From Strigamia acuminata (taxonomy: Eukaryota): 64,000 nucleotides of DNA. Position 1 is the stretch's first letter. Each line of letters opens with the position of its first letter. Position numbers and translations under genes: made by a program. Where the stretch lies: positions 3,162,001 to 3,226,000 of the forward strand of contig OX442314.1 of the NCBI GenBank assembly GCA_949358305.1. The letters run 5' to 3'. The notes below the pieces were generated by a model. The model had not been told where the DNA came from, did not search any database, and was given only the letters and a program-made list of their open reading frames with translations. Below, piece by piece: positions 9,753 through 39,908 of this stretch.

Positions 9753-10077
9753 TTGCTTTTTGTGTGCTTAAAAATAAATACGGAGTACATTTTTAGATTA
9801 AAAATTTCAGTTTGTCTCAAAAACTCATTTTGACACTTAATTTCATAATTCAGTCTCAAAAAGTTATGCATTCTACAAAGAAGTGTGGTATTTGCATCAT
9901 CAAGGCAGAATTCAAGACTGTCAGACGGCAAGAAATGAGACGTCCTTGGTGCCAATAACAGCTGCTGCAGCAAAAGCTTGTGGACTAGGACTACTATGTA
10001 TTCTATGCAAGATTTTATTTTAAAATGTTACATCCCGATTGTCTTACACTGGAGATTTACAATTGTCTTCAATCTTA

Positions 10078-11145: not shown

Positions 11146-11948
11146 GAATCGGGGGTCGACCGACTCGAACCGGGGGTCGACCGACTCGAACCGGGGGTCG
11201 ACCGACTCGAACCGGGGGTCGACCGACTCGAACCGGGGGTCGACCGACTCGAACCGGGGGTCGACCGACTCGAACCGGGGGTCGACCGACTCGAACCGGG
11301 GGTCGACCGACTCGAACCGGGGGTCGACCGACTCGAACCGGGGGTCGACCGACTCGAACCGGGGGTCGACCGACTCGAACCGGGGGTCGACCGACTCGAA
11401 CCGGGGGTCGACCGACTCGAACCGGGGGTCGACCGACTCGAACCGGGGGTCGACCGACTCGAACCGGGGGTCGACCGACTCGAACCGGGGGTCGACCGAC
11501 TCGAACCGGGGGTCGACCGACTCGAACCGGGGGTCGACCGACTCGAACCGGTGGTCGACCGACTCGAACCGGGGGTCGACCGACTAGAACCGGGGGTCGA
11601 CCGACTCGAATCGGGGGTCGACCGACTCGAACCGGGGGTCGACCGACTCGAACCGGGGGTCGACCGACTCGAACCGGGGCTCGACCGACTCGAACCGGGG
11701 GTCGACCGACTCGAACCGGGGGTCGACCGACTCGAATCGGGGGTCGACCGACTCGAACCGGGGGTCGACCGACTCGAACCGGGGGTCGACCGACTCGAAC
11801 CGGGGGTCGACCGACTCGAACCGGGGGTCGACCGACTCGAATCGGGGGTCGACCGACTCGAACCGGGGGTCGACCGACTCGAACCGGGGGTCGACCGACT
11901 CGAACCGGGGGTCGACCGACTCGAACCGGGGGTCGACCGACTCGAACC
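11146..11948. repeat. 21-bp CpG-rich minisatellite (GAACCGGGGGTCGACCGACTC)n, ~38 units
   Basis: Direct inspection; continues in phase at 37941 after Copia-C. Confidence 0.98.
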
Positions 11949-13362: not shown

Positions 13363-15465
13363 ATGCAGAAAGCAGCCAATTCATCGGGCGGTCTAATTCC
13401 CGTCCTAGGAGTCAGGAATTATGAACAGTGGCAGAGAGCAATGCGTATGTTGCTCAAGTCCGAAGGCTTTTGGAGGCACGTGACTGAAGAAAAAGAAGCG
13501 GAACATCTCGCCACTTTAACGGTCAAGGAAACCGAAAGATATATGACTAAAAAGGAGAAGGCGCTCGGACATATATATATTTATGTTAGTGAAGGTAAAC
13601 GTTCGGTTCTCGACAATTGTGATACGCCGAAACAGGCGTGGGACACGCTAGCCAAAATATATGCGCCAAGTTCCAGGGCACGTCAAGCGTCCATGCGCTG
13701 GGAGTTTTTGAGCTTGCATCTTGAGCCCAACGAGGACATGCCCGATTTCATTGCCCGTGTTGACAACTACGCTCGTCAATTACGTGATGTCGGCGAAACT
13801 GTTACGGAAATTCATCAAGCGTACCAGTATTTGAAGTGTTTGCCGCCTGAGTACGCGCAAGCCACGTTCGCTATTTACCATTGGCCAGATCCTCAATTTA
13901 CGCCCACTTTAGTAGCCGAACAATTAATTTCCGAACATCTACGCTTGAAATCATCTGGATTACTTGGGACAGTTTCATCAACGGCTCACGCTTCAGCGAA
14001 GGGACAATTTCGACAGCGTAATAAATCTGGTCCTCGTGATTTATCAAACGTCAAATGTTTTAACTGCGACCAGTTGGGGCACTATGCCAATCGATGTCCG
14101 CTCCCACGCCGTCAAAGTCAGGGCCAACCAACGGCTTCATTTCAACGCACGTCCCGTAGCAAGAGTCGCAGGCGTAATAAAAACGCTGCTACGAAATCTA
14201 ACCCCAACCGACCACGCGAGAGTTCACATCCGCACCGAGAGGGGACATTTTTCGTCAATGCACCACAGGTCATTCATCCACCAGCTGTCCATTTCATGCA
14301 ATCCAATGAATGGATAGTAGATTGTGGTGCAACGGACCATGTATCCCACGTACGCGCATGGTTTACCGATTTCACTGACGTCATTCCTTTCGACATCGAG
14401 TTGGGGCAGGGCAAGTCCCAAGTTACGGGCAAAGGAACAGTTCGACTTCTCACCGCAATTGACAAGGCCCGATGTGTTGTTAATTTAACGAATGTTCTCT
14501 ACGCGCCGAATTTTGAAGCAAATTTGATTTCGGTTTCGAAGATTGATAAGACTCGTCATCACACGCACATCTTTAACGGTGAAATTCACGTGTATCAAAC
14601 GGACATTCGTAGCCCTCTGATTCGTGCGAAAGAAAGAGGTGGTCTATATTACGTGGACGGCTTGTGTTCTACACCGACACTTGCGACGACAGTTTTTACG
14701 ACAATTCCACCGACCACTCCACCGGTCCAAACATTTGTAACGACCGAAGAGGACTTTATTAAGATTCCGAAACAGAAGAAGGGGAACAGACCGATCACGG
14801 ATTTTCGGATAGAGATGCCGATTGTTGAGAAGTTGAAGCAAACTCCCATCCAACAAGCTCCTATCCCAGTCAATCCGATCCCTCCTCCTGTTCCTACACT
14901 CACACACACTCTCACCAACCCGCCTACTCTTCCGTCATATTCAAATGCATTGCAATCAATTCCAACCGTGAACGCCTTCCCTCCGCTTGGCAGCAATTTA
15001 CAATCTCAAAAGAAAGTCATCGCGAATCCGGCTTCTGTCAAAGATGCCACTGGTTTGTGGCATAGCCGATTAGGACATCTCCACACCAACGCGATGAAGC
15101 TATTAGCTGCTAATGATCAAGTATACGGTATGGAACCAGCGGAAGTGAGTCGGGAACTAGCCTGTAATGACTGCCGAATCGCAAAGTCTACGAGGGCATC
15201 GCACAAACCAGATCCAAATCCTTCTACTTCTAAGCCATTGGACCTCCTTCACATGGACGTCTGGGGACCGGCCCCCGTCCCATCATTTGGAGGAGCGCGT
15301 TTTGTACTCACTATCATAGACGACGCCACCCGTTATTGTTGGATTATTCCATTGGCTCAGAAATCTCAAGTTTTCGCATCTTTCAAGGACTTTGTTGCAA
15401 GGGTTGAGCGGATACAAGAAACGAGCGTCAAAGCCATACGTACTGATCGAGGCGGTGAATTTTTA
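13363..15465 (+). CDS. gag-pol: Copia gag-pol polyprotein, N-terminal part (gag, CCHC knuckle, protease, GAG-pre-integrase, first half of integrase core), split by element A
   Basis: NYEQWQRAM, CFNCDQLGHYANRC, WIVDCGATDH, WHSRLGH, LLHMDVWGP, IRTDRGGEF. Confidence 0.95.
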
Positions 15466-17376
15466 TATGACGGTTTACAATGGCTATAAATGCCTATTTT
15501 CTATCAAGAAAGCGCTGTTGCGCCAATATGATGGTATTTTTACAATATTCTGTGTAAAACTGATAAATGTCTAGAATAAAGTCATTTATGATGTTTCAAA
15601 TACAAAGATGTTCGTTTATTAAGAATAAACACTAATTTCCACATGATACTAAAGTATCACGGCATAATTACGAAGATTCGTCTGCTAAAACCCGCATTTG
15701 TCAATGCTCCATATTGCCACTAGATGGCGCGATCGCAATTAGCGATAAATTCGAATACGAACTTGAAAACCTCATGATTAAATATAAACGTATATTTAAT
15801 CAAGTGAATAAATTGTGTTAAATATTAATATAAATATATATTAAATATCTGACATTGTTAAATACAATGTAACTTCCATTTCTGCGGGACAGAATGTTTA
15901 GCGATCAATCGGTCAACCGATCAATCTGATTGGTGGAACCCATTTCCGGTCCTGGGTATCCAGTTCCGGTTGTAACAAGGATTAGCATAATTTGCATAAA
16001 TGCTCCTCCGTATCCACTTCCGGTGATACGGGATTGGAGGGATTCGTGGAACCCATGTTCCAATTGGATAACTGGATTAATCCTTAATCCAGTCAGGTTA
16101 TATAAACCCAAACAACCGGCCATTCTGCAGCTCTGTTTGATTATTTCTGTTTGGTATTGTTACTTAAGAAGTATGATTCGTTGTTCACGTAAAAAACCTT
16201 TTGGTTCTTTGTTGATTTATTCGCAAAGAACCGTTGCATGATTCTACAGAATCATGCCACCGCCGGCAATTGAAGTCGAAGTGCTGGGATTATTATGTTG
16301 CATAAATGTTACAGTCTACGGTTGCGACGCCGAAGGAGAACCCGCCGTTGTGCAATTCAGTATCCTCCGGACAGGACCAAGTTGTCTTTTTCGGTATGAA
16401 CGTATTCCGTTACCACGAGTAGCATCGGTATTGTTGAGAATCGGTTCCTTCACCTGATGGTGCCAAAGCAGTCTGTTTTACAGTAACCACGAGTAGCACC
16501 AAGTGTTTGGCAAGCTGATTCTCATGGTATTCGATGCCAAAGCAGTCGGTCTATTATTAGTACCGCGAGAGATAAAACTGCTGTGCGGAGCCGCGAGCTA
16601 TCGACCCCTGTGTACGTGGTACCGTCAACCACTCGATGGACGACCGTGCTGCGACGCCGGGGACGCTTGATACCGTTCTGCATGGCAAGGCGTATATTCT
16701 AATCGATGGCAATTGTGTGTTGCGACGGGAAGCTTAATCTTCATTTTATTTATAACAGCAAAACTTAAACTCGACAACCAGTTGGACCAAAATCAAGTCA
16801 GAAGACTTAATCTCATATTGAACTCAATATAACCGATAAGTTGACGACAACTTATTCCCGAAATATCTAAATAAGAATTCACAACGATATGAATTAAATA
16901 TAATTCATAAGTGGAATATTGATAAGTAAATGAATACATTTACTTACACCAATATCCTCCCAAAGTTGTGGCGGTGCAGACAAAGTCAACCGCAATGCTC
17001 AGATCATTCGATTTATCGACGTGCGATAGTTTACACAGCGAACCAAGGAAACCAGCGAAGCCGTATCGGACTCCAGGACACAGCCATCCGGCTTAAGATG
17101 ACATCTATAATCAGGTCGAGCGATGGGGAAACCGCTCCCATATTCCAGACCCGTAGTGATATTATTCTAGGGCCAGTTGGCCAATTCTTTGTATAGTTTA
17201 ATAGCTGATTTAACTTGCCAAATGTCGGCATTAGTCCTATGTATAATTTAGCTCATCCATATTGTTTGCCAACAATAAACTGTCTTGTATTTATCTCGTA
17301 TTGTATTCACTGTTTATTTATTGCGATCTCTTCCCGGTACCATTGTTAAATGGGAGTTGTGGTCGTCACCGTCACA
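15466..17376 (+). repeat. Element A copy 2, 5' LTR (TA-start haplotype)
   Basis: TATGACGGT...ACCGTCACA, followed by CG and the PBS. Confidence 0.95.
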
Positions 17377-17378
17377 CG

Positions 17379-17397
17379 TGGAGGTCCCACCGAGATT
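17379..17397 (+). promoter_or_regulatory. Primer-binding site complementary to the tRNA-Gln 3' end
   Basis: TGGAGGTCCCACCGAGATT is the reverse complement of AATCTCGGTGGGACCT-CCA. It lies 2 bp after the LTR and is repeated at 17614-17632. Confidence 0.88.
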
Positions 17398-20300
17398 AGG
17401 TTGCAATTAAATTCGATTGAATTGCAACAGTGAATATTGGAGATAAATATTTAACTAAAAGATTTAAGTTAAAAATAGACAGATTAAATTTTCAGTTTAT
17501 ATTTCCATGTGAAGAAGTTAAACTGATGAAATAGAAATACGTAGTAGATTTTCCTTCATTATTTTCGTTTGAAGATTTTAGGGATTTCAAAGACTACCAC
17601 CTAATCTCACACGTGGAGGTCCCACCGAGATTAGGTTGCAATTAAATTCGATAGAATTGTAAAAGTGAATTTTGAGATAAATATTTAACTAAAAGATTTA
17701 GTTAAAAAACAGACAAGTTTCAAACCATGTTTATTTTCTTGAGAAACACCAAAACAGTCCTTTAACTAGGAATTTCGGAAGTTATAGACCTATCACACGA
17801 TCACTGAAATAGGTTGCAAATTAATTCGATCGAATTGCAAAAGCGAATCTTGAATCCGATATTAACTAAAAAATTTTAGTTAAAACAGACAAATAGATTT
17901 TCAGTTTATATTTTCATGTGAAAAGTTAAACTGACGAAATGGAAACGTTTAGTGAACTCTCTTTACTATTTTCGTTCGACAATTTAAGGAATACGAAGTA
18001 TTTTAAATAAGAAATCAAAAAAGTTTCGAGTGAAATAAGAATACAGATATTTTTTTTCGAAGTTTGTTTTATTTCGAAAAGCTAAAAACATACAAGTTTA
18101 GAAGGCGGACTTCTTACGAATTTATCTTTCCACCTGAAAAGTTAAAACGAAGAAAACACCGCAACTATTTGGAAATATTTACAAGAAATTAAGTTTCTTG
18201 TAACTGTACGTCGACACCGATAGCCAGCGACCACGCGCCATAGCAATACGCGTCGATCTCCGTATCAAACGCAGCAGGGAAGCTACTCAAACCTTCAACG
18301 CAAGGTGCGAACGAATGCTTGGAAATTATGGCGGACAACAGATAAAAGACAGCAGAGAAATGTTACAGAAGGTTCGTAGAGATTTATTTAAGTGTCGCGA
18401 ACTAATTTTTCCACTGCCATCGGTACCAAAGATAATTTAGTTGTTGGAGAAAAACAACACACTCCATTTCGCAGAAAAGATTTGCAAATCGAAATGAATA
18501 TTACCTTTATTTGAAGGAATTAACTATTTTCACAAAAAGGAAAATTTTTCCTTCGGGACAATGGAAATTAAGAAAATATAAAATGGCGGCGAATGAAGTT
18601 GCCGACCACGTAGAATAGTATTTTTTACATTGAAAGTTACGAATCACGATAAACGCTTTCCCTCGGAAAAGTAAAAGGATTTCATTCAATCTTTCCTTTC
18701 GGAAATTTAACAGTGTTTTAAGTTTCCAACGATATTTGGGTCTCCCAAATTTTGAGAATTTCTAAATGAAATTTAGCTGTTTGAAAAACAACGAATATTT
18801 TTAGTAATCTAATCGGACATTTTCCCACATGATTTCTTAAAACCGGAATAACAAATCCATTTGTGGCTATGAACTTTGCCACATGAAATATTTACGGAGC
18901 GAATATTTTTTGATTGGATTGAAGCTTTAAAATCAGATAGCTGATTTAAACGAAGAAAATAAGTTTCAAAGTAATTATTTTTCTTTCGGAAAAATCAAAT
19001 AAATCACCGCTGATGAAAAGTTGTATTTTTCCATTCGAAAAAACTAAGAATTGCACAAGATTTATCTTCTATTTTGAACATAGATTTTATTCGGAAAAGG
19101 AAAGATTCTAGATACATTATTTTTCTCTAAAAATTAAGAATTTAGTCAATTTTCCTAAAGGTTAATGGAATGTCATCATATATTTCGTTCGTAATTTACG
19201 TGTTAAAGTTTAATCAGAAAAACGATTGAATATGTTTTATTTGCGATAAGTAAAAGAAAGGTTCTTTAAAAATGGAATTTCGATGCAAATCCCACAGTAA
19301 AGGGAATGTTATGTGTGAGCAATTAACGAAAAGTTGGAATAACTTCATTTTATTTCATTCAAAAGTAGTTGTGAAAAATCAATTTCAAATATTTTTCAAA
19401 GAAAAATTATTTTTATCGGAAAAAAGTAATTTACATGTCCTCGCGCGGACCGAGTAGTAAACTGCTTAATTGTGACATCGATACTGTTATTGTGTCACGT
19501 GTTATACGGAATTCCAAACCAGTGAATTACGAATTTTGGCGCGATAGGAATAGAAGTTTGACAGTGAAAGTTCTCCAGATTTGTCTTTTCATTTGAAAAG
19601 TTCAAATTGAGGAAATGCTGCAGCAGATGAAGGTATTTACGACAATTGAGATTTAAATATTCTTTCATTCAAAAGATAAAAGATCTCTGCAAAAACATCT
19701 CGTTATTAGAGATAAGGGGGACGAAAATTATTAAAACGAATAATCAAAGACACGTCCTTCGTAAATATCGCAAAGGAATAACTAATTGTGAAAACAATTG
19801 TCCGCTCAGGAAAAGTGGAATTTAGCTAGATATTTTCTTTCGAAAAATCAAAGCAATTGTCATCAAAAAAGAAAGATTTGATGAATAATTTTTACCCAAA
19901 AGTCTAAAGGATTGTCGAATAGTTTTCTCCCGAAAAACAAGTACACATTTGTACCAATAACTTTATCGTTTAAAGTAAAATTTCGAATATTTTCTTTTGG
20001 AAGATTAGAGAATTAGATAATTTTTCTCGCAAAACAAATTTAAAGAATTTTAACGAATTTTTATTTGTTAAAAAAATTTGTTAAAAAAGGGGGAGATGGA
20101 TGGTGAAAATTTATTTTTTCACACTCGAAAAATGGAATTTAAACCCGAAAAAGTAAAGACTTGGTCAAATTATTCTTCCTATTGGAAATGAATACACAAT
20201 GTTGGGAATCGAAAATAGATTTCAATTACAAAGGAATGATTATTTGAACGATAATTGAATAAGAATAAGAAAAATTGAGAGTTTGAGAAAACTTTATTAA

Positions 20301-20560
20301 AGTTGTGGTTGTAACGATATCACACACTAACGGAATAATTAAAAGAAAAATATTTTTTGAAGAAAAGTTATTTAATTATTTGGATTGGTAAAAATCCCAA
20401 AGTTCAAGAAGATTGAAGTAAGTTTATTTTATTTTCATTTGAAAAATACAATATTTTACGAATGTCTTCCCGAAGGAATTTTATTTTATCGGTAAAATTG
20501 AATCTCGAAGGGAACGGACTTAGTAGAGAACTACTAAATAGATGTAACGTCCTTTATACC

Positions 20561-20658
20561 ATTGGCCGACACTAACATCCGCCAATCAGAAGTTGGGAGA
20601 TCTAGGGATCCCCAGCCCCCTGCTATTAAAGGAGGACCAGATCAGATACTGATCATTC
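20561..20658 (+). promoter_or_regulatory. Putative internal Pol II promoter of the element A ORF
   Basis: ATTGG 20561, CCAAT 20582, TATTAAA 20624 and initiator-like TCATTC 20653 at canonical spacing; GC-richer island in AT-rich DNA, ~250 bp upstream of the ATG. Confidence 0.5.
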
Positions 20659-20900
20659 GCATCCAGACCAGACCAGAAGACGTGTTCCAGAGTCATCTTG
20701 ACCACGCCGTCCCGATTTCAGTCACGATTCGAATTTTGTGTGCCGTGTAACCTGCAAAAGCTAACACGTGTCAAACAAACGCGAAGTTTAATTTTATTTT
20801 GTCAAAAGTAAAGTTTAGAAGTGTTTCTTGTTGAAAAGTGTATTATATTCGTCTTCTTTATAAATTAAAGAATTAAAATCGTCAGATTTTGAATTTTTTT

Positions 20901-22382
20901 ATGGCTCAAAAACCATTGAATATGATCGATCCAAAAGGAAATAATAAGCAGACAAACTTAAATTTAAGTTCTGTACCACTTGGCGATCAAACAGAAAAGA
21001 TTCCCGATCATTTTACTCTGTATTGTAATCGTCATGGACTGGATAAAACCAAGTTTAAAAATATAATCGAAGCTTCAGACTATGTAAAAGCTAGGAACTG
21101 GCGAGATCGTACCCAATCTCAATCTTCACATCAAGATCCAGTACGGAATCCACAAACATACAGCCGAAACTTAGTGAATCAAGATTCTCATACTATGTTT
21201 CAAACATCCAGTAGGGGATCTAAGTTAGAAAAGTTTAAACCACCTAATTCGGTAGATAAGGGGGAAGAGAATTATAAACCTAATAATTCTCGTCCAGAGA
21301 GTTCGTTAACTAACCAGTCGGTTGTTCAGAACAAATTAAAACTCGTTTACAATCGAGATCAGCTAATTTCAGTTCGATATGCTAATCCAGCTGAAGCACA
21401 ACGATATGTGGCTAGCCTTAATCTGTCGATTAACCTACCGCTATCAAAAGAATTGGGAACCGTAAACAAAAGTTTTGGGCCACCAATATCAACGCAAAGG
21501 AAAGATATTCGGACTCCAAACAAACATTTGCAGTCAAATAACGTACAACAACGTGCCCGATCGCCGATCACAAACTCATGTTTGCGGACGTATGATTTGT
21601 CTACCAAGAAGAGTCCCCAGCCAAGACAATTCTACCTAACGCCCATTTCAAATCGAAAAAAGGTCAAGCAAACTTTTCCCTTGAAAAAGTATTACCAACA
21701 CGATAATGAGAATGATTTTAAACCTAAAAAAGAAAGTTTTTTGACTAACCCACGGGAGATCCGGTATCAATTCGAACAGTATTGTAAACAATACCAGTTA
21801 AATTCAGCTGAATTTAAAAATATAAACGAAGCGCAACAATTCGTATTTCGAAATCAATACCGTAACCAACGACTAAAACCCGTCCCAGTCGTCAATCTGA
21901 CGGAGATACAACAATTTGCGTCTGGAAAGCAACCCTGCAATATCCAGAATAATTCATCTCAACGAGAGGAATTAAGAACTTCAAAAAAGCGTTTTCGGTC
22001 ACCAAGTCCAGCTGGTGATGAAGAAACTTCAAGTACAAACCAACATGTTCAAAAACTGACTGAAAACCCAGGTTTCCAATCATCAGTTCCACGACTTAGA
22101 GTCAAATATAGATCCCCTCGTTTGTTGCGGGATTTCACAATTCCAAATATGGGTCCTTTCCACGTATGGTTTTCCAATGAGGGTCCCATTCATGTATGGT
22201 TTTCCAGAGATGACCTAAAACAAAAAGTTGGGTCGTCACGGTCATTTACACTGCCAAGTGAGTACACTGTGTGTAACTGCCCAAAGAAAAAACGTCGAAA
22301 GAAATCAGTACAGCAGGCTGAGAGATCTCGGAAATTTGCAAATATGCGAGCTCAATATTTAGCAAAGAATCATGTTGATTAA
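20901..22382 (+). CDS. Element A cargo protein, 493 aa from first ATG, unknown family; duplicated module and C-terminal NLS-like PKKKRRKK
   Basis: Long intact ORF in very AT-rich DNA, conserved in all copies; no gag, PR, RT, IN or env motif recognised. Confidence 0.75.
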   Translation: MAQKPLNMIDPKGNNKQTNLNLSSVPLGDQTEKIPDHFTLYCNRHGLDKTKFKNIIEASDYVKARNWRDRTQSQSSHQDPVRNPQTYSRNLVNQDSHTMFQTSSRGSKLEKFKPPNSVDKGEENYKPNNSRPESSLTNQSVVQNKLKLVYNRDQLISVRYANPAEAQRYVASLNLSINLPLSKELGTVNKSFGPPISTQRKDIRTPNKHLQSNNVQQRARSPITNSCLRTYDLSTKKSPQPRQFYLTPISNRKKVKQTFPLKKYYQHDNENDFKPKKESFLTNPREIRYQFEQYCKQYQLNSAEFKNINEAQQFVFRNQYRNQRLKPVPVVNLTEIQQFASGKQPCNIQNNSSQREELRTSKKRFRSPSPAGDEETSSTNQHVQKLTENPGFQSSVPRLRVKYRSPRLLRDFTIPNMGPFHVWFSNEGPIHVWFSRDDLKQKVGSSRSFTLPSEYTVCNCPKKKRRKKSVQQAERSRKFANMRAQYLAKNHVD

Positions 22383-23382
22383 CATGATATGATACACAAA
22401 GATTCCCCGATTATAGTGTAAACAGAAAATCCTCTTCTAAAAATCATGACCTCTCTTCTAAAGAAAAGGGGGACAAAATATAAAGTTAAAATTAACAATT
22501 CTCGAAAAGTAATATTACAGTATTAAAAGACAACTAGTTTAAATTAAAATTAGTCAATTGTACAAAGAATACCAAGTGACTCCGGTCATGACAATTAAGG
22601 AGGACATTTTGATTCTTAAATTGTCAACTCTTATCATCTAAAAGCTATTTATTGTATATTTATAGCGATACATCTGACTAGGCATATGAAATAAATATTT
22701 TGTGATAACACAAATGATGATTTTATGTATGACGAAAGTTTCTTCAAAAAGAAGACTTGGAAATAAATTCTGGACTTGAATTTAGGCTATTAGAAAAGAT
22801 TATTTCGGCAGAAATCCAGAACTTAGATAATTCAAGTTAGTTTATGTAAACTCAAATTCGAAATTGGAAGTCACGGTATCTCCAAGATACATCAAGTCCG
22901 AAAATAGCATTTATGCTAATTAGGAGAATAACGAAAACTCTATAAAATATTATATAGTTGTGTTATTAAGGGGGATGTATGACGGTTTACAATGGCTATA
23001 AATGCCTATTTTCTATCAAGAAAGCGCTGTTGCGCCAATATGATGGTATTTTTACAATATTCTGTGTAAAACTGATAAATGTCTAGAATAAAGTCATTTA
23101 TGATGTTTCAAATACAAAGATGTTCGTTTATTAAGAATAAACACTAATTTCCACATGATACTAAAGTATCACGGCATAATTACGAAGATTCGTCTGCTAA
23201 AACCCGCATTTGTCAATGCTCCATATTGCCACTAGATGGCGCGATCGCAATTAGCGATAAATTCGAATACGAACTTGAAAACCTCATGATTAAATATAAA
23301 CGTATATTTAATCAAGTGAATAAATTGTGTTAAATATTAATATAAATATATATTAAATATCTGACATTGTTAAATACAATGT

Positions 23383-26300
23383 TATGACGGTTTACAATGG
23401 CTATAAATGCCTATTTTCTATCAAGAAAGCGCTGTTGCGCCAATATGATGGTATTTTTACAGTATTCTGTGTAAAACGGATATAATTCCTAAATAAAGCT
23501 ATTTATGAGGTTTCCATGATAAAAGATGATGTATTAATTAGTATTAATAACATTCCTACATGATATCAAGATATCACGACCAAATCACGATGATTCGTCT
23601 ACTAAAACCGCATTTGTCAATGCGCAATGTTGTCGCCAGATGGCGCGATCACGATTTAGCGGTAAATTCAAGATATGAATATAAAACATGTAAATAAATA
23701 TAAAACTATATTTACTAGAACGAAACGAAGCTTTGTGAACATTAATATAAAGATATATTAATGTCTTTTGATGTTAAATACATTATAACTTCCATTTTCT
23801 GCGGGATAGAACATTTGGTGATCAATCGATCAACCGATCGATCTGATTGGTGGATCCATTTCCGGCCCTGGGTATCCAGTTCCGGTTGTGGTGAGAATTA
23901 GCATAATGCTCCTCCGTATCCACTTCCGGTGATACGGGATTGGAGGGATTCGTGGAACCCATGTTCCAATTGGATGACTGGATTAATCCTTAATCCAGTC
24001 AGGTTATATAAACCCAAACAATCGGCCATTCCGCAGCTCTGTTTGATTATTTTCTGTTTGGTATTGTTACTTATGAAATATGATTCGTTGTTCACGTAAA
24101 AAACCTTTTGGTTCTTTGTTGATTTATTCGCAAAGAACCGTTGCATGATTCTACAGAATCATGCCACCGCCGGCAATTGAAGTCGAAGTGCTGGGATTAT
24201 TATGTTGCATAAATGTTACAGTCTACGGTTGCGACGCCGAAGGAGAACCCGCCGTTGTGCAATTCAGTATCCTCCGGACAGGACCAAGTTGTCTTTTTCG
24301 GTATGAACGTATTCCGTTACCACGAGTAGCATCGGTATTGTTGAGAATCGGTTCCTTCACCTGATGGTGCCAAAGCAGTCTGTTTTACAGTAACCACGAG
24401 TAGCACCAAGTGTTTGGCAAGCTGATTCTCATGGTATTCGATGCCAAAGCAGTCGGTCTATTATTAGTACCGCGAGAGATAAAACTGCTGTGCGGAGCCG
24501 TGAGCTATCGACCCCTGTGTACGTGGTACCGTCAACCACTCGATGGACGACCGTGCTGCGACGCCGGGGACGCTTGATACCGTTCTGCATGGCAAGGCGT
24601 ATATTCTAATCGATGGCAATTGTGTGTTGCGACGGGAAGCTTAATCTTCATTTTATTTATAACAGCAAAACTTAAACTCGACAACCAGTTGGACCAAAAT
24701 CAAGTCAGAAGACTTAATCTCATATTGAACTCAATATAACCGATAAGTTGACGACAACTTATTCCCGAAATATCTAAATAAGAATTCACAACGATATGAA
24801 TTAAATATAATTCATAAGCGGAATATTGATAAGTAAATGAATACATTTACTTACACCAATATCCTCCCAAAGTTGTGGCGGTGCAGACAAAGTCAACCGC
24901 AATGCTCAGATCATTCGATTTATCGACGTGCGATAATTTACACAGCGAACCAAGGAAACCAGCGAAGCCATATCGGACTCCAGGACACAGCCATCCGGCT
25001 TAGATGACATCTGTAAACCAGGTCGAGCGATGGGGAAACCGCTCCCTTATCCCAGACACGTAATGATATTATTTTAGGACCAATTGGCCTATGCTTTGTA
25101 TAGTTTAATAGTCAGTTAACTTGCCAAATGTTGGCATTAGTCTTATGTATAATTTAGCTCACTGCATATTGTTTGCCAACAATAAATTGTCTTGTATTTA
25201 TCTCGTATTGTATTCACTGTTATTTATCGCGATCTCTTCCCGGTACCATTGTTAAATGGGAGTTGTGGTCGTCACCGTCACACGTGGAGGTCCCACCGAG
25301 ATTAGGTTGCAATTAAATTCGATTGAATTGCAACAGTGAATATTGGAGATAAATATTTAACTAAAAGATTTAAGTTAAAAATAGACAGATTAAATTCTCA
25401 GTTTATATTTCCATGTGAAGAAGTTAAACTGATGAAATAGAAATACGTAGTAGATTTTCCTTCATTATTTTCGTTTGAAGATTTTAGGGATTTCAAAGAC
25501 TACCACCTAATCTCACACGTGGAGGTCCCACCGAGATTAGGTTGCAATTAAATTCGATAGAATTGTAAAAGTGAATTTTGAGATAAATATTTAACTAAAA
25601 GATTTAGTTAAAAAACAGACCAGTTTCAAACCATGTTTATTTTCTTGAGAAACACCAAAACTGTCCTTTAACTAGGAATTTCGGAAGTTATAGACCTATC
25701 ACACGATCACTGAAATAGGTTGCAAATTAATTCGATCGAATTGCAAAAGCGAATCTTGAATCCGATATTAACAAAAAAATTTTAGTTAAAACAGACAAAT
25801 AGATTTTCAGTTTATATTTTCATGTGAAAAGTTAAACTGACGAAATGGAAACGTTTAGTGAACTCTCTTTACTATTTTCGTTCGACAATTTAAGGAATAC
25901 GAAGTATTTTAAATAAGAAATCAAAAAAAAGTTTCGAGTGAAATAAGAATACAGATATTTTTTTCGAAGTTTGTTTTATTTCGAAAAGCTAAAAACATAC
26001 AAGTTTAGAAGGCGGACTTCTTACGAATTTATCTTTCCACCTGAAAAGTTAAAACGAAGAAAACACCGCAACTATTTGGAAATATTTACAAGAAATTAAG
26101 TTTCTTGTAACTGTACGTCGACACCGATAGCCAGCGACCACGCGCCATAGCAATACGCGTCGATCTCCGTATCAAACGCAGCAGGGAAGCTACTCAAACC
26201 TTCAACGCAAGGTGCGAACGAATGCTTGGAAATTATGGCGGACAACAGATAAAAGACAGCGGAGAAATGTTACAGAAGGTTCGTAGAGATTTATTTAAGT

Positions 26301-29300
26301 GTCGCGAACTAATTTTTCCACTGCCATCGGTACCAAAGATAATTTAGTTGTTGGAGAAAAAACAACACACTCCATTTCGCAGAAAAGATTTGCAAATCGA
26401 AATGAATATTACCTTTATTTGAAGGAATTAACTATTTTCACAAAAAGTACATTTTTTCCTTCGGGACAATGGAAATTAAGAAAATATAAAATGGCGGCGA
26501 ATGAAGTTGCCGACCACATAGAATAGTATTTTTTACATTGAAAGTTACGAATCACGATAAACGCTTTCCCTCGGAAAAGTAAAAGGATTTCATTCAATCT
26601 TTCCTTTCGGAAATTTAACAGTGTTTTAAGTTTCCAACGATATTTGGGTCTCCCAAATTTTGAGAATTTCTAAATGAAATTTAGCTGTTTGAAAAACAAC
26701 GAATATTTTTAGTAATCTAATCGGACATTTTCCCACATGATTTCTTAAAACCGGAATAACAAATCCATTTGTGGCTATGAACTTTGCCACATGAAATATT
26801 TACGGAGCGAATATTTTTTGATTGGATTGAAGCTTTAAAATCAGATAGCTGATTTAAACGAAGAAAATAAGTTTCAAAGTAATTATTTTTCTTTCGGAAA
26901 AATCAAATAAATCACCGCTGATGAAAAGTTGTATTTTTCCATTCGAAAAAACTAAGAATTGCACAAGATTTATCTTCTATTTTGAACATAGATTTTATTC
27001 GGAAAAGGAAAGATTCTAGATACATTATTTTTCTCTAAAAATTAAGAATTTAGTCAATTTTCCTAAAGGTTAATGGAATGTCATCATATATTTCGTTCGT
27101 AATTTACGTGTTAAAGTTTAATCAGAAAAACGATTGAATATGTTTTATTTGCGATAAGTAAAAGAAAGGTTCTTTAAAAATGGAATTTCGATGCAAATCC
27201 CACAGTAAAGGGAATGTTATGTGTGAGCAATTAACGAAAAGTTGGAATAACTTCATTTTATTTCATTCAAAAGTAGTTGTGAAAAATCAATTTCAAATAT
27301 TTTTCAAAGAAAAATTATTTTTATCGGAAAAAAGTAATTTACATGTCCTCGCGCGGACCGAGTAGTAAACTGCTTAATTGTGACATCGATACTGTTATTG
27401 TGTCACGTGTTATACGGAATTCCAAACCAGTGAATTACGAATTTTGGCGCGATAGGAATAGAAGTTTGACAGTGAAAGTTCTCCAGATTTGTCTTTTCAT
27501 TTGAAAAGTTCAAATTGAGGAAATGCTGCAGCAGATGAAGGTATTTACGACAATTGAGATTTAAATATTCTTTCATTCAAAAGATAAAAGATCTCTGCAA
27601 AAACATCTCGTTATTAGAGATAAGGGGGACGAAAATTATTAAAACGAATAATCAAAGACACGTCCTTCGTAAATATCGCAAAGGAATAACTAATTGTGAA
27701 AACAATTGTCCGCTCAGGAAAAGTGGAATTTAGCTAGATATTTTCTTTCGAAAAATCAAAGCAATTGTCATCAAAAAAGAAAGATTTGATGAATAATTTT
27801 TACCCAAAAGTCTAAAGGATTGTCGAATAGTTTTCTCCCGAAAAACAAGTACACATTTGTACCAATAACTTTATCGTTTAAAGTAAAATTTCGAATATTT
27901 TCTTTTGGAAGATTAGAGAATTAGATAATTTTTCTCGCAAAACAAATTTAAAGAATTTTAACGAATTTTTATTTGTTAAAAAAATTTGTTAAAAAAGGGG
28001 GAGATGGATGGTGAAAATTTATTTTTTCACACTCGAAAAATGGAATTTAAACCCGAAAAAGTAAAGACTTGGTCAAATTATTCTTCCTATTGGAAATGAA
28101 TACACAATGTTGGGAATCGAAAATAGATTTCAATTACAAAGGAATGATTATTTGAACGATAATTGAATAAGAATAAGAAAAATTGAGAGTTTGAGAAAAC
28201 TTTATTAAAACTGTGGTTGTAATGATATTACACACTAAACGGAATAATCAAAGAAAAATATTTTTTGAAGAAAAGTTATTTAATTATTTGGATTGGTAAA
28301 AATCCCAAAGTTCAAGAAGATTGAAGTAAGTTTATTTTATTTTCATTTGAAAAATACAATATTTTACGAATGTCTTCCCGAAGGAATTTTATTTTATCGG
28401 TAAAATTGAATCTCGAAGGGAACGGACTTAGTAGAGAACTACTAAATAGATGTAACGTCCTTTATACCATTGGCCGACACTAACATCCGCCAATCAGAAG
28501 TTGGGAGATCTAGGGATCCCCAGCCCCCTGCTATTAAAGGAGGACCAGATCAGATACTGATCATTCGCATCCAGACCAGACCAGAAGACGTGTTCCAGAG
28601 TCATCTTGACCACGCCGTCCCGATTTCAGTCACGATTCGAATTTTGTGTGCCGTGTAACCTGCAAAAGCTAACACGTGTCAAACAAACGCGAAGTTTAAT
28701 TTTATTTTGTCAAAAGTAAAGTTTAGAAGTGTTTCTTGTTGAAAAGTGTATTATATTCGTCTTCTTTATAAATTAAAGAATTAAAATCGTCAGATTTTGA
28801 ATTTTTTTATGGCTCAAAAACCATTGAATATGATCGATCCAAAAGGAAATAATAAGCAGACAAACTTAAATTTAAGTTCTGTACCACTTGGCGATCAAAC
28901 AGAAAAGATTCCCGATCATTTTACTCTGTATTGTAATCGTCATGGACTGGATAAAACCAAGTTTAAAAATATAATCGAAGCTTCAGACTATGTAAAAGCT
29001 AGGAACTGGCGAGATCGTACCCAATCTCAATCTTCACATCAAGATCCAGTACGGAATCCACAAACATACAGCCGAAACTTAGTGAATCAAGATTCTCATA
29101 CTATGTTTCAAACATCCAGTAGGGGATCTAAGTTAGAAAAGTTTAAACCACCTAATTCGGTAGATAAGGGGGAAGAGAATTATAAACCTAATAATTCTCG
29201 TCCAGAGAGTTCGTTAACTAACCAGTCGGTTGTTCAGAACAAATTAAAACTCGTTTACAATCGAGATCAGCTAATTTCAGTTCGATATGCTAATCCAGCT

Positions 29301-32300
29301 GAAGCACAACGATATGTGGCTAGCCTTAATCTGTCGATTAACCTACCGCTATCAAAAGAATTGGGAACCGTAAACAAAAGTTTTGGGCCACCAATATCAA
29401 CGCAAAGGAAAGATATTCGGACTCCAAACAAACATTTGCAGTCAAATAACGTACAACAACGTGCCCGATCGCCGATCACAAACTCATGTTTGCGGACGTA
29501 TGATTTGTCTACCAAGAAGAGTCCCCAGCCAAGACAATTCTACCTAACGCCCATTTCAAATCGAAAAAAGGTCAAGCAAACTTTTCCCTTGAAAAAGTAT
29601 TACCAACACGATAATGAGAATGATTTTAAACCTAAAAAAGAAAGTTTTTTGACTAACCCACGGGAGATCCGGTATCAATTCGAACAGTATTGTAAACAAT
29701 ACCAGTTAAATTCAGCTGAATTTAAAAATATAAACGAAGCGCAACAATTCGTATTTCGAAATCAATACCGTAACCAACGACTAAAACCCGTCCCAGTCGT
29801 CAATCTGACGGAGATACAACAATTTGCGTCTGGAAAGCAACCCTGCAATATCCAGAATAATTCATCTCAACGAGAGGAATTAAGAACTTCAAAAAAGCGT
29901 TTTCGGTCACCAAGTCCAGCTGGTGATGAAGAAACTTCAAGTACAAACCAACATGTTCAAAAACTGACTGAAAACCCAGGTTTCCAATCATCAGTTCCAC
30001 GACTTAGAGTCAAATATAGATCCCCTCGTTTGTTGCGGGATTTCACAATTCCAAATATGGGTCCTTTCCACGTATGGTTTTCCAATGAGGGTCCCATTCA
30101 TGTATGGTTTTCCAGAGATGACCTAAAACAAAAAGTTGGGTCGTCACGGTCATTTACACTGCCAAGTGAGTACACTGTGTGTAACTGCCCAAAGAAAAAA
30201 CGTCGAAAGAAATCAGTACAGCAGGCTGAGAGATCTCGGAAATTTGCAAATATGCGAGCTCAATATTTAGCAAAGAATCATGTTGATTAACATGATATGA
30301 TACACAAAGATTCCCCGATTATAGTGTAAACAGAAAATCCTCTTCTAAAAATCATGACCTCTCTTCTAAAGAAAAGGGGGACAAAATATAAAAGTTAGAA
30401 TTAACAAAATTTTGAAAAGTAATGCTACATTATTAAGACAACTAGTTTAAATTAAAATTAGTCAATTGTACAAAGAATACCAAGTGACTCCGGTCATGAC
30501 AATTAAGGGGGACATTTTGATTCTTAAATTGTCAACTCTTATCATCTAAAAGCTATTTATTGTATATTTATAGCGATACATCTGACTAGGCATATGAAAT
30601 AAATATTTTGTGATAACACAAATGATGATTTTATGTATGACGAAAGTTTCTTCAAAAAGAAGACTTGGAAATAAATTCTGGACTTGAATTTAGGCTATTA
30701 GAAAAGATTATTTCGGCAGAAAATCAGAACTTAGATAATTCAAGTTAGTTTATGTAAACTCAAATTCGAAATTGGAAGTCACGGTATCTCCAAGATACAT
30801 CAAGTCCGAAAAATAGCATTTATGCTAATTAGGAGAATAACGAAAACTCTATAAAATATTATATAGTTGTGTTATTAAGGGGGATGTATGACGGTTTACA
30901 ATGGCTATAAATGCCTATTTTCTATCAAGAAAGCGCTGTTGCGCCAATATGATGGTATTTTTACAGTATTCTGTGTAAAACGGATATAATTCCTAAATAA
31001 AGCTATTTATGAGGTTTCCATGATAAAAGATGATGTATTAATTAGTATTAATAACATTCCTACATGATATCAAGATATCACGACCAAATCACGATGATTC
31101 GTCTACTAAAACCGCATTTGTCAATGCGCAATGTTGTCGCCAGATGGCGCGATCACGATTTAGCGGTAAATTCAAGATATGAATATAAAACATGTAAATA
31201 AATATAAAACTATATTTACTAGAACGAAACGAAGCTTTGTGAACATTAATATAAAGATATATTAATGTCTTTTGATGTTAAATACATTATAACTTCCATT
31301 TTCTGCGGGATAGAACATTTGGTGATCAATCGATCAACCGATCGATCTGATTGGTGGATCCATTTCCGGCCCTGGGTATCCAGTTCCGGTTGTGGTGAGA
31401 ATTAGCATAATGCTCCTCCGTATCCACTTCCGGTGATACGGGATTGGAGGGATTCGTGGAACCCATGTTCCAATTGGATGACTGGATTAATCCTTAATCC
31501 AGTCAGGTTATATAAACCCAAACAATCGGCCATTCCGCAGCTCTGTTTGATTATTTTCTGTTTGGTATTGTTACTTATGAAATATGATTCGTTGTTCACG
31601 TAAAAAACCTTTTGGTTCTTTGTTGATTTATTCGCAAAGAACCGTTGCATGATTCTACAGAATCATGCCACCGCCGGCAATTGAAGTCGAAGTGCTGGGA
31701 TTATTATGTTGCATAAATGTTACAGTCTACGGTTGCGACGCCGAAGGAGAACCCGCCGTTGTGCAATTCAGTATCCTCCGGACAGGACCAAGTTGTCTTT
31801 TTCGGTATGAACGTATTCCGTTACCACGAGTAGCATCGGTATTGTTGAGAATCGGTTCCTTCACCTGATGGTGCCAAAGCAGTCTGTTTTACAGTAACCA
31901 CGAGTAGCACCAAGTGTTTGGCAAGCTGATTCTCATGGTATTCGATGCCAAAGCAGTCGGTCTATTATTAGTACCGCGAGAGATAAAACTGCTGTGCGGA
32001 GCCGCGAGCTATCGACCCCTGTGTACGTGGTACCGTCAACCACTCGATGGACGACCGTGCTGCGACGCCGGGGACGCTTGATACCGTTCTGCATGGCAAG
32101 GCGTATATTCTAATCGATGGCAATTGTGTGTTGCGACGGGAAGCTTAATCTTCATTTTATTTATAACAGCAAAACTTAAACTCGACAACCAGTTGGACCA
32201 AAATCAAGTCAGAAGACTTAATCTCATATTGAACTCAATATAACCGATAAGTTGACGACAACTTATTCCCGAAATATCTAAATAAGAATTCACAACGATA

Positions 32301-32786
32301 TGAATTAAATATAATTCATAAGCGGAATATTGATAAGTAAATGAATACATTTACTTACACCAATATCCTCCCAAAGTTGTGGCGGTGCAGACAAAGTCAA
32401 CCGCAATGCTCAGATCATTCGATTTATCGACGTGCGATAATTTACACAGCGAACCAAGGAAACCAGCGAAGCCATATCGGACTCCAGGACACAGCCATCC
32501 GGCTTAGATGACATCTGTAAACCAGGTCGAGCGATGGGGAAACCGCTCCCTTATCCCAGACACGTAATGATATTATTTTAGGACCAATTGGCCTATGCTT
32601 TGTATAGTTTAATAGTCAGTTAACTTGCCAAATGTTGGCATTAGTCTTATGTATAATTTAGCTCACTGCATATTGTTTGCCAACAATAAATTGTCTTGTA
32701 TTTATCTCGTATTGTATTCACTGTTATTTATCGCGATCTCTTCCCGGTACCATTGTTAAATGGGAGTTGTGGTCGTCACCGTCACA
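23383..32786 (+). mobile_element. Element A copy 3 (complete), nested in the 3' LTR of copy 2
   Basis: LTRs 23383-25282 and 30887-32786; PBS at 25285; TSD ATGT (23379-23382 / 32787-32790); the host LTR resumes exactly after the TSD. Confidence 0.95.
28809..30290 (+). CDS. Element A cargo protein (copy 3)
   Basis: Translation identical to 20901-22382. Confidence 0.75.
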   Translation: MAQKPLNMIDPKGNNKQTNLNLSSVPLGDQTEKIPDHFTLYCNRHGLDKTKFKNIIEASDYVKARNWRDRTQSQSSHQDPVRNPQTYSRNLVNQDSHTMFQTSSRGSKLEKFKPPNSVDKGEENYKPNNSRPESSLTNQSVVQNKLKLVYNRDQLISVRYANPAEAQRYVASLNLSINLPLSKELGTVNKSFGPPISTQRKDIRTPNKHLQSNNVQQRARSPITNSCLRTYDLSTKKSPQPRQFYLTPISNRKKVKQTFPLKKYYQHDNENDFKPKKESFLTNPREIRYQFEQYCKQYQLNSAEFKNINEAQQFVFRNQYRNQRLKPVPVVNLTEIQQFASGKQPCNIQNNSSQREELRTSKKRFRSPSPAGDEETSSTNQHVQKLTENPGFQSSVPRLRVKYRSPRLLRDFTIPNMGPFHVWFSNEGPIHVWFSRDDLKQKVGSSRSFTLPSEYTVCNCPKKKRRKKSVQQAERSRKFANMRAQYLAKNHVD

Positions 32787-34300
32787 ATGTAACTTCCATT
32801 TCTGCGGGACAGAATGTTTAGCGATCAATCGGTCAACCGATCAATCTGATTGGTGGAACCCATTTCCGGTCCTGGGTATCCAGTTCCGGTTGTAACAAGG
32901 ATTAGCATAATTTGCATAAATGCTCCTCCGTATCCACTTCCGGTGATACGGGATTGGAGGGATTCGTGGAACCCATGTTCCAATTGGATAACTGGATTAA
33001 TCCTTAATCCAGTCAGGTTATATAAACCCAAACAACCGGCCATTCTGCAGCTCTGTTTGATTATTTCTGTTTGGTATTGTTACTTAAGAAGTATGATTCG
33101 TTGTTCACGTAAAAAACCTTTTGGTTCTTTGTTGATTTATTCGCAAAGAACCGTTGCATGATTCTACAGAATCATGCCACCGCCGGCAATTGAAGTCGAA
33201 GTGCTGGGATTATTATGTTGCATAAATGTTACAGTCTACGGTTGCGACGCCGAAGGAGAACCCGCCGTTGTGCAATTCAGTATCCTCCGGACAGGACCAA
33301 GTTGTCTTTTTCGGTATGAACGTATTCCGTTACCACGAGTAGCATCGGTATTGTTGAGAATCGGTTCCTTCACCTGATGGTGCCAAAGCAGTCTGTTTTA
33401 CAGTAACCACGAGTAGCACCAAGTGTTTGGCAAGCTGATTCTCATGGTATTCGATGCCAAAGCAGTCGGTCTATTATTAGTACCGCGAGAGATAAAACTG
33501 CTGTGCGGAGCCGCGAGCTATCGACCCCTGTGTACGTGGTACCGTCAACCACTCGATGGACGACCGTGCTGCGACGCCGGGGACGCTTGATACCGTTCTG
33601 CATGGCAAGGCGTATATTCTAATCGATGGCAATTGTGTGTTGCGACGGGAAGCTTAATCTTCATTTTATTTATAACAGCAAAACTTAAACTCGACAACCA
33701 GTTGGACCAAAATCAAGTCAGAAGACTTAATCTCATATTGAACTCAATATAACCGATAAGTTGACGACAACTTATTCCCGAAATATCTAAATAAGAATTC
33801 ACAACGATATGAATTAAATATAATTCATAAGTGGAATATTGATAAGTAAATGAATACATTTACTTACACCAATATCCTCCCAAAGTTGTGGCGGTGCAGA
33901 CAAAGTCAACCGCAATGCTCAGATCATTCGATTTATCGACGTGCGATAGTTTACACAGCGAACCAAGGAAACCAGCGAAGCCGTATCGGACTCCAGGACA
34001 CAGCCATCCGGCTTAAGATGACATCTATAATCAGGTCGAGCGATGGGGAAACCGCTCCCATATTCCAGACCCGTAGTGATATTATTCTAGGGCCAGTTGG
34101 CCAATTCTTTGTATAGTTTAATAGCTGATTTAACTTGCCAAATGTCGGCATTAGTCCTATGTATAATTTAGCTCATCCATATTGTTTGCCAACAATAAAC
34201 TGTCTTGTATTTATCTCGTATTGTATTCACTGTTTATTTATTGCGATCTCTTCCCGGTACCATTGTTAAATGGGAGTTGTGGTCGTCACCGTCACATTTA

Positions 34301-37940: not shown

Positions 37941-38696
37941 GAACCGGGGGTCGACCGACTCGAACCGGGGGTCGACCGACTCGAACCGGGGGTCGACCGA
38001 CTCGAACCGGGGGTCGACCGACTCGAACCGGGGGTCGACCGACTCGAACCGGGGGTCGACCGACTCGAACCGGGGGTCGACCGACTCGAACCGGGGGTCG
38101 ACCGACTCGAACCGGGGGTCGACCGACTCGAACCGGGGGTCGACCGACTCGAACCGGGGGTCGACCGACTCGAACCGGGGGTCGACCGACTCGAACCGGG
38201 GGTCGACCGACTCGAACCGGGGGTCGACCGACTCGAACCGGGGGTCGACCGACTCGAACCGGGGGTCGACCGACTCGAACCGGGGGTCGACCGACTCGAA
38301 CCGGGGGTCGACCGACTCGAACCGGGGGTCGACCGACTCGAACCGGGGGTCGACCGACTCGAACCGGGGGTCGACCGACTCGAACCGGGGGTCGACCGAC
38401 TCGAACCGGGGGTCGACCGACTCGAACCGGGGGTCGACCGACTCGAACCGGGGTTCGACCGACTCGAACCGGGGGTCGACCGACTCGAACCGGGGGTCGA
38501 CCGACTCGAACCGGGGGTCGACCGACTCGAACCGGGGGTCGACCGACTCGAACCGGGGGTCGACCGACTCGAACCGGGGGTCGACCGACTCGAACCGGGG
38601 GTCGACCGACTCGAACCGGGGGTCGACCGACTCGAACCGGGGGTCGACCGACTCGAACCGGGGGTCGACCGACTCGAATTGGGGGTCGACCGACTC
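37941..38696. repeat. 21-bp minisatellite, ~36 units
   Basis: Direct inspection. Confidence 0.98.
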
Positions 38697-39908
38697 GGGA
38701 TGGGATACTTGGGTCGAAATGAATAAGGTCGAAACAAGAACTCGACCTTATTCATTTCGACCCTAGTCATTTCTGTATGTCTAATTTTGACCTTCTTCAT
38801 GAATAAGATCGAAACATCATTTTGACCTTAGTCATTTCGACCTTATTCATGAATAAGATCGAAATAGGATTTCGACCTTAGTCATTTCGACCCTAGTCAT
38901 TTCGGTGTATGTAATTTCGACCTTATTCATGAATAAGGTCGAAACTTTAAATTTTTATATGAATAAGGTCGAAAAACAAAAACTCAAAAACATGAGAATT
39001 TCACATGAGAATCTCGTGTCTTCTCTCGTTTTCTAATAACAATGTAAAAAATGTTTTTTATTTTATCACTTGTTTTATATTTGCAGGAAACCAGAGCTTC
39101 TAGAAGAAACTATTTCATATTTTTCTCATTTATTTTATAATTAAGTAATAAAATAACCTTATTTTAGCCTACATAAAGTTGTTTTTATTTTGATATTAAT
39201 TTAATTTTTTTTTGAACGTTAATTGGCAGTATAAAGTGTGTACACACTGGCCTGATCAAACAATGCAAAAAACACCGCCCAAAACACCGTATCTATTAAA
39301 GAATGCGCGCCGGCAGGCTGCTTAGCGCATTTACCCGGTGCTTCACTGCATCAACGCCATTTTTTTTCTCGGTTTTTCATGTTTTTCACATCGTTTTAAC
39401 TCGTTTTTATCATTTTTTTATGATTTCTTAATTTTTTTTTCATTTTTAAACCGTTTTTTTACGGCTTTTAATGTTTTTTTCCCATTTTTTTTCCATTTTT
39501 TGATGATTTTTCAGGTTTTTTTTTAAGTTTTAATTGGTTTTTCGTGGTTTTTAATATTTTTATTGGTTTTAATGTGTGTTTTATGATCTTTTACGTGTTT
39601 TTCCAGAAGACACAAGATTCTCATGTGAAATTCTCATGTTTATGAGTTTTTAACTTTCGACCTTATTCATATAAAAATTTAGAGTTTCGACCTCATTCAT
39701 GAATAAGGTCGACCTTATACATATTTCGACCTTATTCATGAATAAGATAGAAACAGCATTTCGACCTTAGTCCTTTCGACCCTAGTCATTTCTGTATATG
39801 TAATTTCGACTTTAATCATTTCACCCAGGGATGGGATACTTGGGTCGAAATTAATAAGGTCAAAACAGGATTTCAACCTTATTCATTTCGACCTTAGTAT
39901 GAAATCCC
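38697..39908. mobile_element. 1.2-kb non-coding foldback (MULE-like) element H, copy 1
   Basis: Termini GGGATGGGATACTTGGGTCGAAATGAATAAGG...CCTTATTCATTTCGACCTTAGTATGAAATCCC, flanked by ACCGACTC on both sides. Subterminal TTCGACCTTATTCAT repeats and ~110-bp internal inverted repeats. The superfamily call is inference. Confidence 0.6.

Follow-up and report, generated by a model that had tools for sequence, protein, structure and literature searches.

Non-autonomous retrotransposons with long terminal repeats (LTRs) usually figure in descriptions as non-coding or as Gag-only elements, and accessory genes mainly as companions of Gag and Pol. The locus analysed here, at positions 15466-34296 of a 64,000-nucleotide stretch of the Strigamia acuminata genome (GCA_949358305.1, contig OX442314.1, positions 3,162,001 to 3,226,000; called the window below), raises the question of how an element that carries neither can spread, and of what its one gene is for. 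The combination is unusual: an actively spreading element whose sole gene is an orphan accessory gene, with an array of short motifs alongside it. A sole accessory gene isolates the question of what such genes do: should selection be maintaining it in the absence of gag-pol, its benefit must lie in helper competition, RNA export or anti-silencing. We propose that the element is copied by a helper, and that its orphan gene encodes a nuclear accessory protein favouring the element's own RNA. We put the probability of this reading at about 0.4.

Self-comparison of the window and inspection of the junctions confirmed an LTR retrotransposon family with four copies (A-D). An earlier note on this DNA had counted three of these as complete, with distinct 4-bp target site duplications (TSDs), identical or nearly identical paired LTRs, and a primer binding site (PBS) as well as a polypurine tract (PPT), both intact, and all of this is borne out. 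The span 15466-34296 (+ strand) is copy A with copy B nested in its 3' LTR. Copy A is 9423 bp long when the nested copy is removed, has the TSD TTTA at 15462-15465 and 34297-34300, and interrupts a Copia integrase. Its 5' LTR (15466-17376, 1911 bp) matches the 3' LTR at 1911/1911 positions, the latter being split by copy B into two pieces (22978-23382 and 32787-34296). Copy B (23383-32786, +, 9404 bp) has the TSD ATGT at 23379-23382 and 32787-32790 and LTRs at 23383-25282 and 30887-32786 that match at 1899/1900 positions. Copy C (42974-51968, - strand, 8995 bp) lies inside a 21-bp tandem array, with the TSD CGGG and LTRs at 50067-51968 and 42974-44875 that match at 1902/1902 positions. Copy D (1-3175, +) is a 3' part only, cut by the window edge, with an LTR at 1273-3175, and lies inside a second Copia gag. 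The host sites are all repeats, and 4-bp TSDs flank all three complete copies. Duplication or artefact of the assembly is ruled out, because the TSDs and U3 sequences differ among the copies. That four copies of a young family lie within 52 kb, every one of them in a repeat, suggests a nest that is targeted or tolerant, for instance heterochromatin or a PIWI-interacting RNA cluster.

The LTR termini are TA..CA in A and B, and TG..CA in C and D. A and B begin with TA in both LTRs and yet have clean TSDs, and they share this start although their U3 regions differ at 99/649 sites. The LTR of copy A is predicted to comprise U3 to about 16130, then a long R, AATAAA at 17274 and a short U5, borders that we presume from familiar motifs. 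U3 contains an octamer-like motif at 15990, CCAAT boxes, and TATATAAA at 16099. The PPT, AAGGGGGATG (22968-22977, +), abuts the 3' LTR of copy A. The 18-nt PBS, which we take to be the complement of the 3' end of tRNA-Gln, begins two bases after the 5' LTR (17379-17396, +, in copy A). It occurs five times in the window and in none of 100 shuffles. The count is five because A and B carry a duplicated PBS-proximal unit, which C lacks (411 nt): copy A has another perfect PBS at 17614-17631, followed near 17795-17890 by a third unit that is degenerate, copy B has its sites at 25285 and 25520, and copy C has one, at 50047-50064. The segment 17377-17890 is thus a tandem duplication of the LTR end and PBS, which leaves A and B each with a pair of perfect primer sites and a third that has decayed. 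Priming at the inner PBS could yield copies with changed 5' interiors. PPT-like purine tracts also occur inside the element (20083-20099, 19712-19725 and 22460-22474), and may represent a central PPT or be left over from earlier rearrangements.

The insertions are very recent. The open reading frame (ORF) differs at 0-1 of 1482 sites among A, B and C, the predicted promoter region upstream of it at 0/360, and the 5' non-coding region at 1/2672 sites between B and C. By contrast, 69-99 of the 649 sites of the predicted U3 differ, grouped in blocks between which the odd copy out changes. U3 blocks combined with a near-identical interior are the pattern expected of template switching between co-packaged RNAs, here of sister families.

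The element is present in three of the six sequencing runs listed, which come from two studies; one of the three runs may be the window's own source. In run X1 the contigs that contain the ORF are long and unbranched, with a depth of ~9,000-10,000, against 60-170 for rare diverged pieces, and over 21350-21536 only one other variant reaches 1% or more. The family is large and nearly monomorphic in two runs. Scaled on two shared low-depth joints, the main ORF contig amounts to ~80-115 units in X1 and 6-8 in X3, contig depth being no copy number. This no more than suggests a recent burst, unequal from sample to sample, and the apparent ~10-fold gap in abundance between the samples of the two studies would permit a strain comparison. 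Two further depth patterns hint at sister families that share the LTR core or the array: in X3 extra contigs are deeper over the non-coding interior than over the ORF, and in X1 the single-site depth in R-U5 is ~40,000-60,000, well over twice that of the interior (~10,000). Depth cannot rank the parts of an element, and both patterns were set aside as evidence.

Neither gag nor pol is recognisable in the element, and the earlier statement that no retroelement enzyme is visible stands. No Pfam family matched at E<=0.1 in any of nine frames (the 3.5-kb 5' interior in six frames, the LTR in three, with X at stops). When seven retroelement proteins of the window served as tblastn queries, none matched the element better than E 0.053, while the proteins did find each other. 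Stop codons are dense in all six frames of the 5' interior, and on these three counts it is not recognisably decayed pol. Since there is no recognisable gag or pol, established LTR biology implies that the element moves in trans. A Gypsy-type signature fits, because the TSD is 4 bp, the LTRs are long and the U3 regions are recombinant, and non-autonomous movement by a Gypsy-type helper is very probable. The Copia of the window has a 5-bp TSD. Animal Helenus elements also have 4-bp TSDs, and the only elements with which they have PBS regions in common are Gypsy elements (PMC10886601).

The helper is likely a long-LTR, Gln-primed Gypsy. The earlier note had argued for a Gypsy-type helper from the TSD length of the Gypsy in the window (54427-61046, +); that Gypsy itself we reject as the helper. 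It has 255-bp LTRs (~54427-54681 and ~60792-61046) unrelated to those of the element, a Leu-type PBS and the TSD ATAG, so that only the length of the TSD is in common and no sequence is shared. Because it differs in both PBS and LTR, the helper should be another element outside this view. By PBS and LTR size the window Gypsy is of mdg3/micropia type: it is like the mdg3-lineage rows of PMC3286476, which give a 264-bp LTR, a Leu PBS and a 4-bp TSD, in PBS type, short LTR and TSD length. A hunt for a helper using the PBS pattern gave no match in viral contigs. In metagenomes it gave two loci with only 22-29 nt in common around the PBS and no ORF of gag/pol size, and seven matches in bacteria were taken as chance.

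The one ORF lies just upstream of the PPT, as had been noted, and encodes 493 amino acids. Full copies are at 20901-22382 (A, +), 28809-30290 (B, +) and 45470-46951 (C, -), and its end is at 1-678 in copy D. Shuffling that DNA 500 times gave open frames of at most 172 codons. GC content at codon positions 1/2/3 is 0.46/0.38/0.32 (p=1e-5). There is an internal duplication, of residues 38-157 and 290-409, with a score of 75 that was reached by 2 of 1000 shuffles. Upstream lies a predicted internal promoter (20561-20658, +), with CCAAT at 20561 and 20582, TATTAAA at 20624 and an initiator-like TCATTC at 20653, motifs which we take to match the CCAAT, TATA and initiator consensus. These motifs, which are suitably spaced, suggest a separate ORF transcript.

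The earlier description of the ORF as conserved cannot be upheld on the window copies. Their identity is no proof of conservation, because the non-coding DNA is almost equally identical. More informative are relatives that are 14-19% diverged, in which the frame is kept: one contig has 57 substitutions and no gaps in 300 nt, and another, over 430 nt, has 61 and a net loss of 6 nt. A piece from X2 that overlaps, and that extends 47 nt beyond the stop, has 7 gap letters at positions not shown, and in an X3 piece that crosses the stop the one gap matches a known 1-nt difference in the 3' untranslated region. Non-coding pieces of less than 95% identity, by comparison, all carry gaps (10 of 10 distinct pieces from X1-X3, with 7-38 gap letters for 16-38 substitutions). 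This contrast is drawn from the longest 32 of ~6,850 pieces, excluding those above 95% identity, two duplicates, and the pieces of run X6 (10 short diverged pieces, mostly LTR). Judged from its sequence, the ORF is probably a real gene. The idea of an accessory gene holds in that the ORF is gene-like, and is weakened by the low constraint in the one stretch where constraint can be measured, discussed below. Taken together, this looks like a disordered, fast-evolving protein in which small islands are constrained, or else like a gene that is now relaxing.

The predicted protein is basic, rich in S, N, Q, K and R, and mostly disordered. It contains two helix-loop-helix-shaped repeats, at residues 34-68 (21000-21104, +) and 287-321 (21759-21863, +), the core of the second being modelled with a predicted local distance difference test (pLDDT) score of ~90. 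A basic cluster, PKKKRRKK (22281-22304, +), is a predicted nuclear localisation signal and runs into a predicted basic C-terminal helix. There is no CCHC knuckle, furin site or hydrophobic segment (maximum 19-residue hydropathy 0.75), nor the signal peptide and transmembrane segment of an env-like ORF3, and no gag or env family of Pfam matched. The basic tail and the lack of a hydrophobic segment point to a nuclear protein rather than one like Gag or Env, as far as sequence and model can indicate.

No relative of the protein was found. A phmmer search against 1.84 billion representatives gave no match at E<=0.001. A word-based homolog search at near and shorter lengths and, with the repeat profile, at longer lengths gave no relative, and neither did ESM Atlas with the whole protein or the repeat, or searches of PDB sequences and viral contigs. 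Pfam and PHROGs gave sub-threshold matches only, the sole Pfam match for the ORF being APP_N (E 0.39). The full-length single-sequence model has a pLDDT of 41, and the model of the repeat was used for fold searches instead. Foldseek found nothing in PDB with it, and nothing at E<=0.001 among 22 weak viral rows. In a comparison of the repeat with known structures, many of the top 50 matches are bHLH/Id domains, at background level: the best has Z 4.4 (root-mean-square deviation 3.2, 50 aligned), and none of 48,161 chains reaches Z 5. By sequence, no HLH family matched either repeat at E<=10. Likenesses to HEH/SAP and to the RNase H hybrid-binding domain were rejected, no such family having matched.

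The DNA between the PBS region and the ORF had been described as AT-rich and non-coding. It does lack any trace of gag or pol, but it is not featureless. The region 17850-20540 (+, 30% GC) contains a dispersed array of TTTC-N(2-7)-GAAA palindromes: 15 are seen against 3.3+-1.8 expected, a number reached in none of 200 dinucleotide shuffles. The motif was first spotted by eye and tested afterwards. With the motif in reverse order there is no enrichment (5 vs 3.1), nor is there any in the window's other AT-rich DNA (2 vs 1.9), and TTTC/GAAA is the top inverted pair of 4-mers (z 6.8 with 6-nt block shuffles). The spacers vary, with a peak at 4-5 nt. Because the array has no fixed period and no strand-specific folding, DNA sites and small RNA hairpins are indistinguishable as explanations. 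Repeats in the untranslated regions of retrotransposons can serve as enhancers or insulators (PMC3286476). A likeness to STAT sites was rejected, as the spacer lengths vary.

Across the element, RNA folding has a mean z of -0.9 on the + strand and -0.7 on the - strand (22 windows), with the strongest windows in R-U5. Within the predicted R, over 16186-17030, there is strand-specific stable folding, with z of -2.9 to -4.0 in 4 of 10 windows, and these folds are candidate packaging or dimerisation signals. An Rfam search of the element gave no match. Conserved RNA secondary structure in the interior is a criterion for large retrotransposon derivatives (LARDs), the class to which the element had been likened. 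In being non-autonomous, recently active and of Gypsy-type signature it is indeed LARD-like and presumably mobilised in trans, but its ORF breaks the strict definition.

On the basis of these observations, we propose the following cycle. RNA made from the LTR promoter would enter helper particles, with tRNA-Gln as the primer for its copying, and the helper integrase would insert the product, leaving the 4-bp duplications. The ORF would be expressed separately from the internal TATA/initiator promoter. Its product would enter the nucleus and act on cis sites of the element, for which the TTTC-N4/5-GAAA array is the candidate, raising transcription or nuclear export of the full-length RNA; this is the weakest step. 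The gene most likely stems from a long-LTR Gypsy, in which it was the 3' accessory gene, and was retained when gag-pol was lost. A bolder form, in which the element is a true satellite whose twin-helical nuclear protein and cognate palindrome array outcompete the helper or evade silencing and so drive a lineage-specific burst, we consider rather unlikely. The anti-silencing role that had been suggested is disfavoured if it means countering DNA methylation: the observed/expected ratio of CpG is 0.81-1.65, and above 1 in seven of eight regions, young copies not being bound to show depletion.

Several results weigh against the reading that we prefer. Neither sequence nor structure searches place the domain in a known nucleic-acid-binding family, no result connects the protein with the array, and the latter could be a binding site for host factors or the remains of tandem repeats, and no helper was found, there being no partner with the same LTR ends and PBS in the window. 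The evidence for selection is mixed. Within the core repeat 13 of 35 residues are identical and pN is 0.40 against a pS of 0.72, a comparison biased by the choice of the block for its similarity. The contrast in gaps has P ~0.05 when every non-coding piece counts as one event only, and homopolymers are commoner in non-coding DNA. Over residues 151-211 of a diverged contig, the ratio of non-synonymous to synonymous substitution rates (dN/dS) is 0.74, close to neutral; there are 22 amino-acid changes against 23.6 for random placement, as few as this in 30% of 5000 random placements, and the absence of a stop has P=0.10. Eight of the 12 close ORF variants listed, a selected subset of 709 rows, are non-synonymous. 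The dN/dS and the close variants speak for a rival reading, in which this is an ordinary LARD-like parasite with an ORF that is a once-selected passenger, inherited from the helper or captured, of no use to this lineage and surviving because the burst is so young. The window copies are near-identical in coding and non-coding DNA alike, and the codon bias and old duplication record past selection only. On the other hand, the frame is intact in the diverged relatives while non-coding pieces accumulate gaps, the promoter-like motifs are correctly spaced, and a 1.8-kb cassette has been retained in a lineage without gag-pol. We regard a passenger as possible but doubtful.

The nature of the protein allows further explanations. 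The twin helical domains could bind protein rather than nucleic acid, either the Gag/Pol of the helper or a host factor (for example as an Id/Emc-like helix-loop-helix decoy, or by binding a component of a silencing pathway), and in this way skew packaging or lift silencing. A disordered, fast-evolving chain with short helical modules would suit this, as would the frequency of bHLH/Id domains among the top structural matches, but those matches stay within background and HLH families are unmatched by sequence; we think it unlikely. It is more improbable still that the ORF is a Gag or Env diverged beyond recognition. The single ORFs of zebrafish Bhikhari elements did prove to be Gag (PMC13269885), which would make this element one of the TR-GAG/Bhikhari kind, and the ORF occupies the slot of env. 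It starts 3.5 kb past the PBS, however, with its own predicted promoter, lacks the Pfam matches, motifs and hydropathy of either protein, and is mostly disordered in the single-sequence model. The least probable is an eIF4E-binding translational regulator, a thought that arises from two YxxxxL-hydrophobic motifs that are in register between the duplicated halves, at residues 150-156 and 403-409. The first of these fits what we take to be the extended 4E-binding consensus. Such motifs easily arise by chance, and the diverged contig alters positions 152, 156 and 159, the hydrophobic one included; a role of this kind would be very surprising. A nuclear protein acting on the element's own RNA is retained as the preferred reading.

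The surroundings of the element are themselves repetitive. The Copia that copy A interrupts (11949-37940, +) is young, with 518-bp LTRs that are 99% identical and the TSD GAACC. Its pol ORF (34406-37201) contains an MBD-like domain between integrase and reverse transcriptase (35405-35647, +), with a match to Pfam MBD of E=0.0038 and 17.3 bits, under the cut-off of 21. This resembles CopiaMBD, which PMC6673714 reports only from Strigamia and Stegodyphus; the window shows no CpG depletion. A repeat family at 11146-11948, 37941-42976, 51969-53518 and 62069-62784 consists of ~1.2-kb AT-rich units, carrying internal inverted repeats, that alternate with GC-rich 21-bp arrays, and both the Copia and copy C lie in such an array. 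The pol of the window Gypsy is split by a 486-bp insert (58877-59362) that is also found at 5869-6354. Finally, a 138-aa ORF (6314-6730, -) has no significant Pfam match. We presume a likeness to the N-terminus of a BEL/Pao Gag.

It remains to compare the element with known systems. A literature search, in which Repbase and Dfam were not covered, gave no description of this family. The element is like a LARD in exceeding 4 kb, in its intact LTRs, PBS, PPT and TSD, and in the absence of gag and pol, and differs in keeping a 493-aa ORF with a coding signature, LARDs being described there without coding sequence (PMC4350172, PMC6696364). The cqUNK elements of Culex quinquefasciatus also have no gag or pol, no master copy in view and interior repeats, and two of their families use a Gln PBS; their LTRs are 125-931 bp and they are non-coding, whereas the element has 1.9-kb LTRs and an ORF with a predicted promoter (PMC3286476). 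TR-GAG and Bhikhari are LTR elements with one ORF, and TR-GAG is non-autonomous, but in both the ORF is Gag, and TR-GAG is below 4 kb; the element has no Gag features (PMC4350172, PMC13269885). The Osvaldo lineage comes close, with LTRs of ~1-2 kb and mostly 4-bp TSDs (those of the element are 1900-1911 bp). The PBS given there is invariably tRNA-Lys, in contrast to Gln here (PMC3286476). Osvaldo-lineage Ty3/gypsy is nevertheless the likeliest kind of helper; the element itself has no pol, and so has no place in a tree. Troyka differs from the element in both termini and TSD (PMC12440569).

In placement, the accessory gene resembles those of Grande and Retand, where a long region ahead of the 3' LTR contains an extra ORF to which no function is assigned, and repeat arrays lie nearby. 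The product of the Grande ORF is nuclear and the ORF has its own promoter, and some Retand elements are non-autonomous (PMC11963269). Their ORFs are antisense, encode TRP28, usually stand beside gag/pol and occur in plants (PMC11963269), whereas the ORF here runs in sense, shows no relation to them, is the element's only gene and lies in an animal-type genome. The ORF3s of bdelloid elements are similar in the placement of the gene (PMC5408684). CERV, from Cer1 of C. elegans, is a functional analogy only: it is a novel nuclear accessory protein that acts on the RNA of its own element, but its mRNA is spliced, and the element it comes from has Gag and Pol as well (PMC10309623). VANC of the Arabidopsis VANDAL elements offers the combination of a fast-evolving element protein with repeated motifs in non-coding DNA, and differs in belonging to a DNA transposon and in countering DNA methylation, the window being without CpG depletion (PMC5735166).

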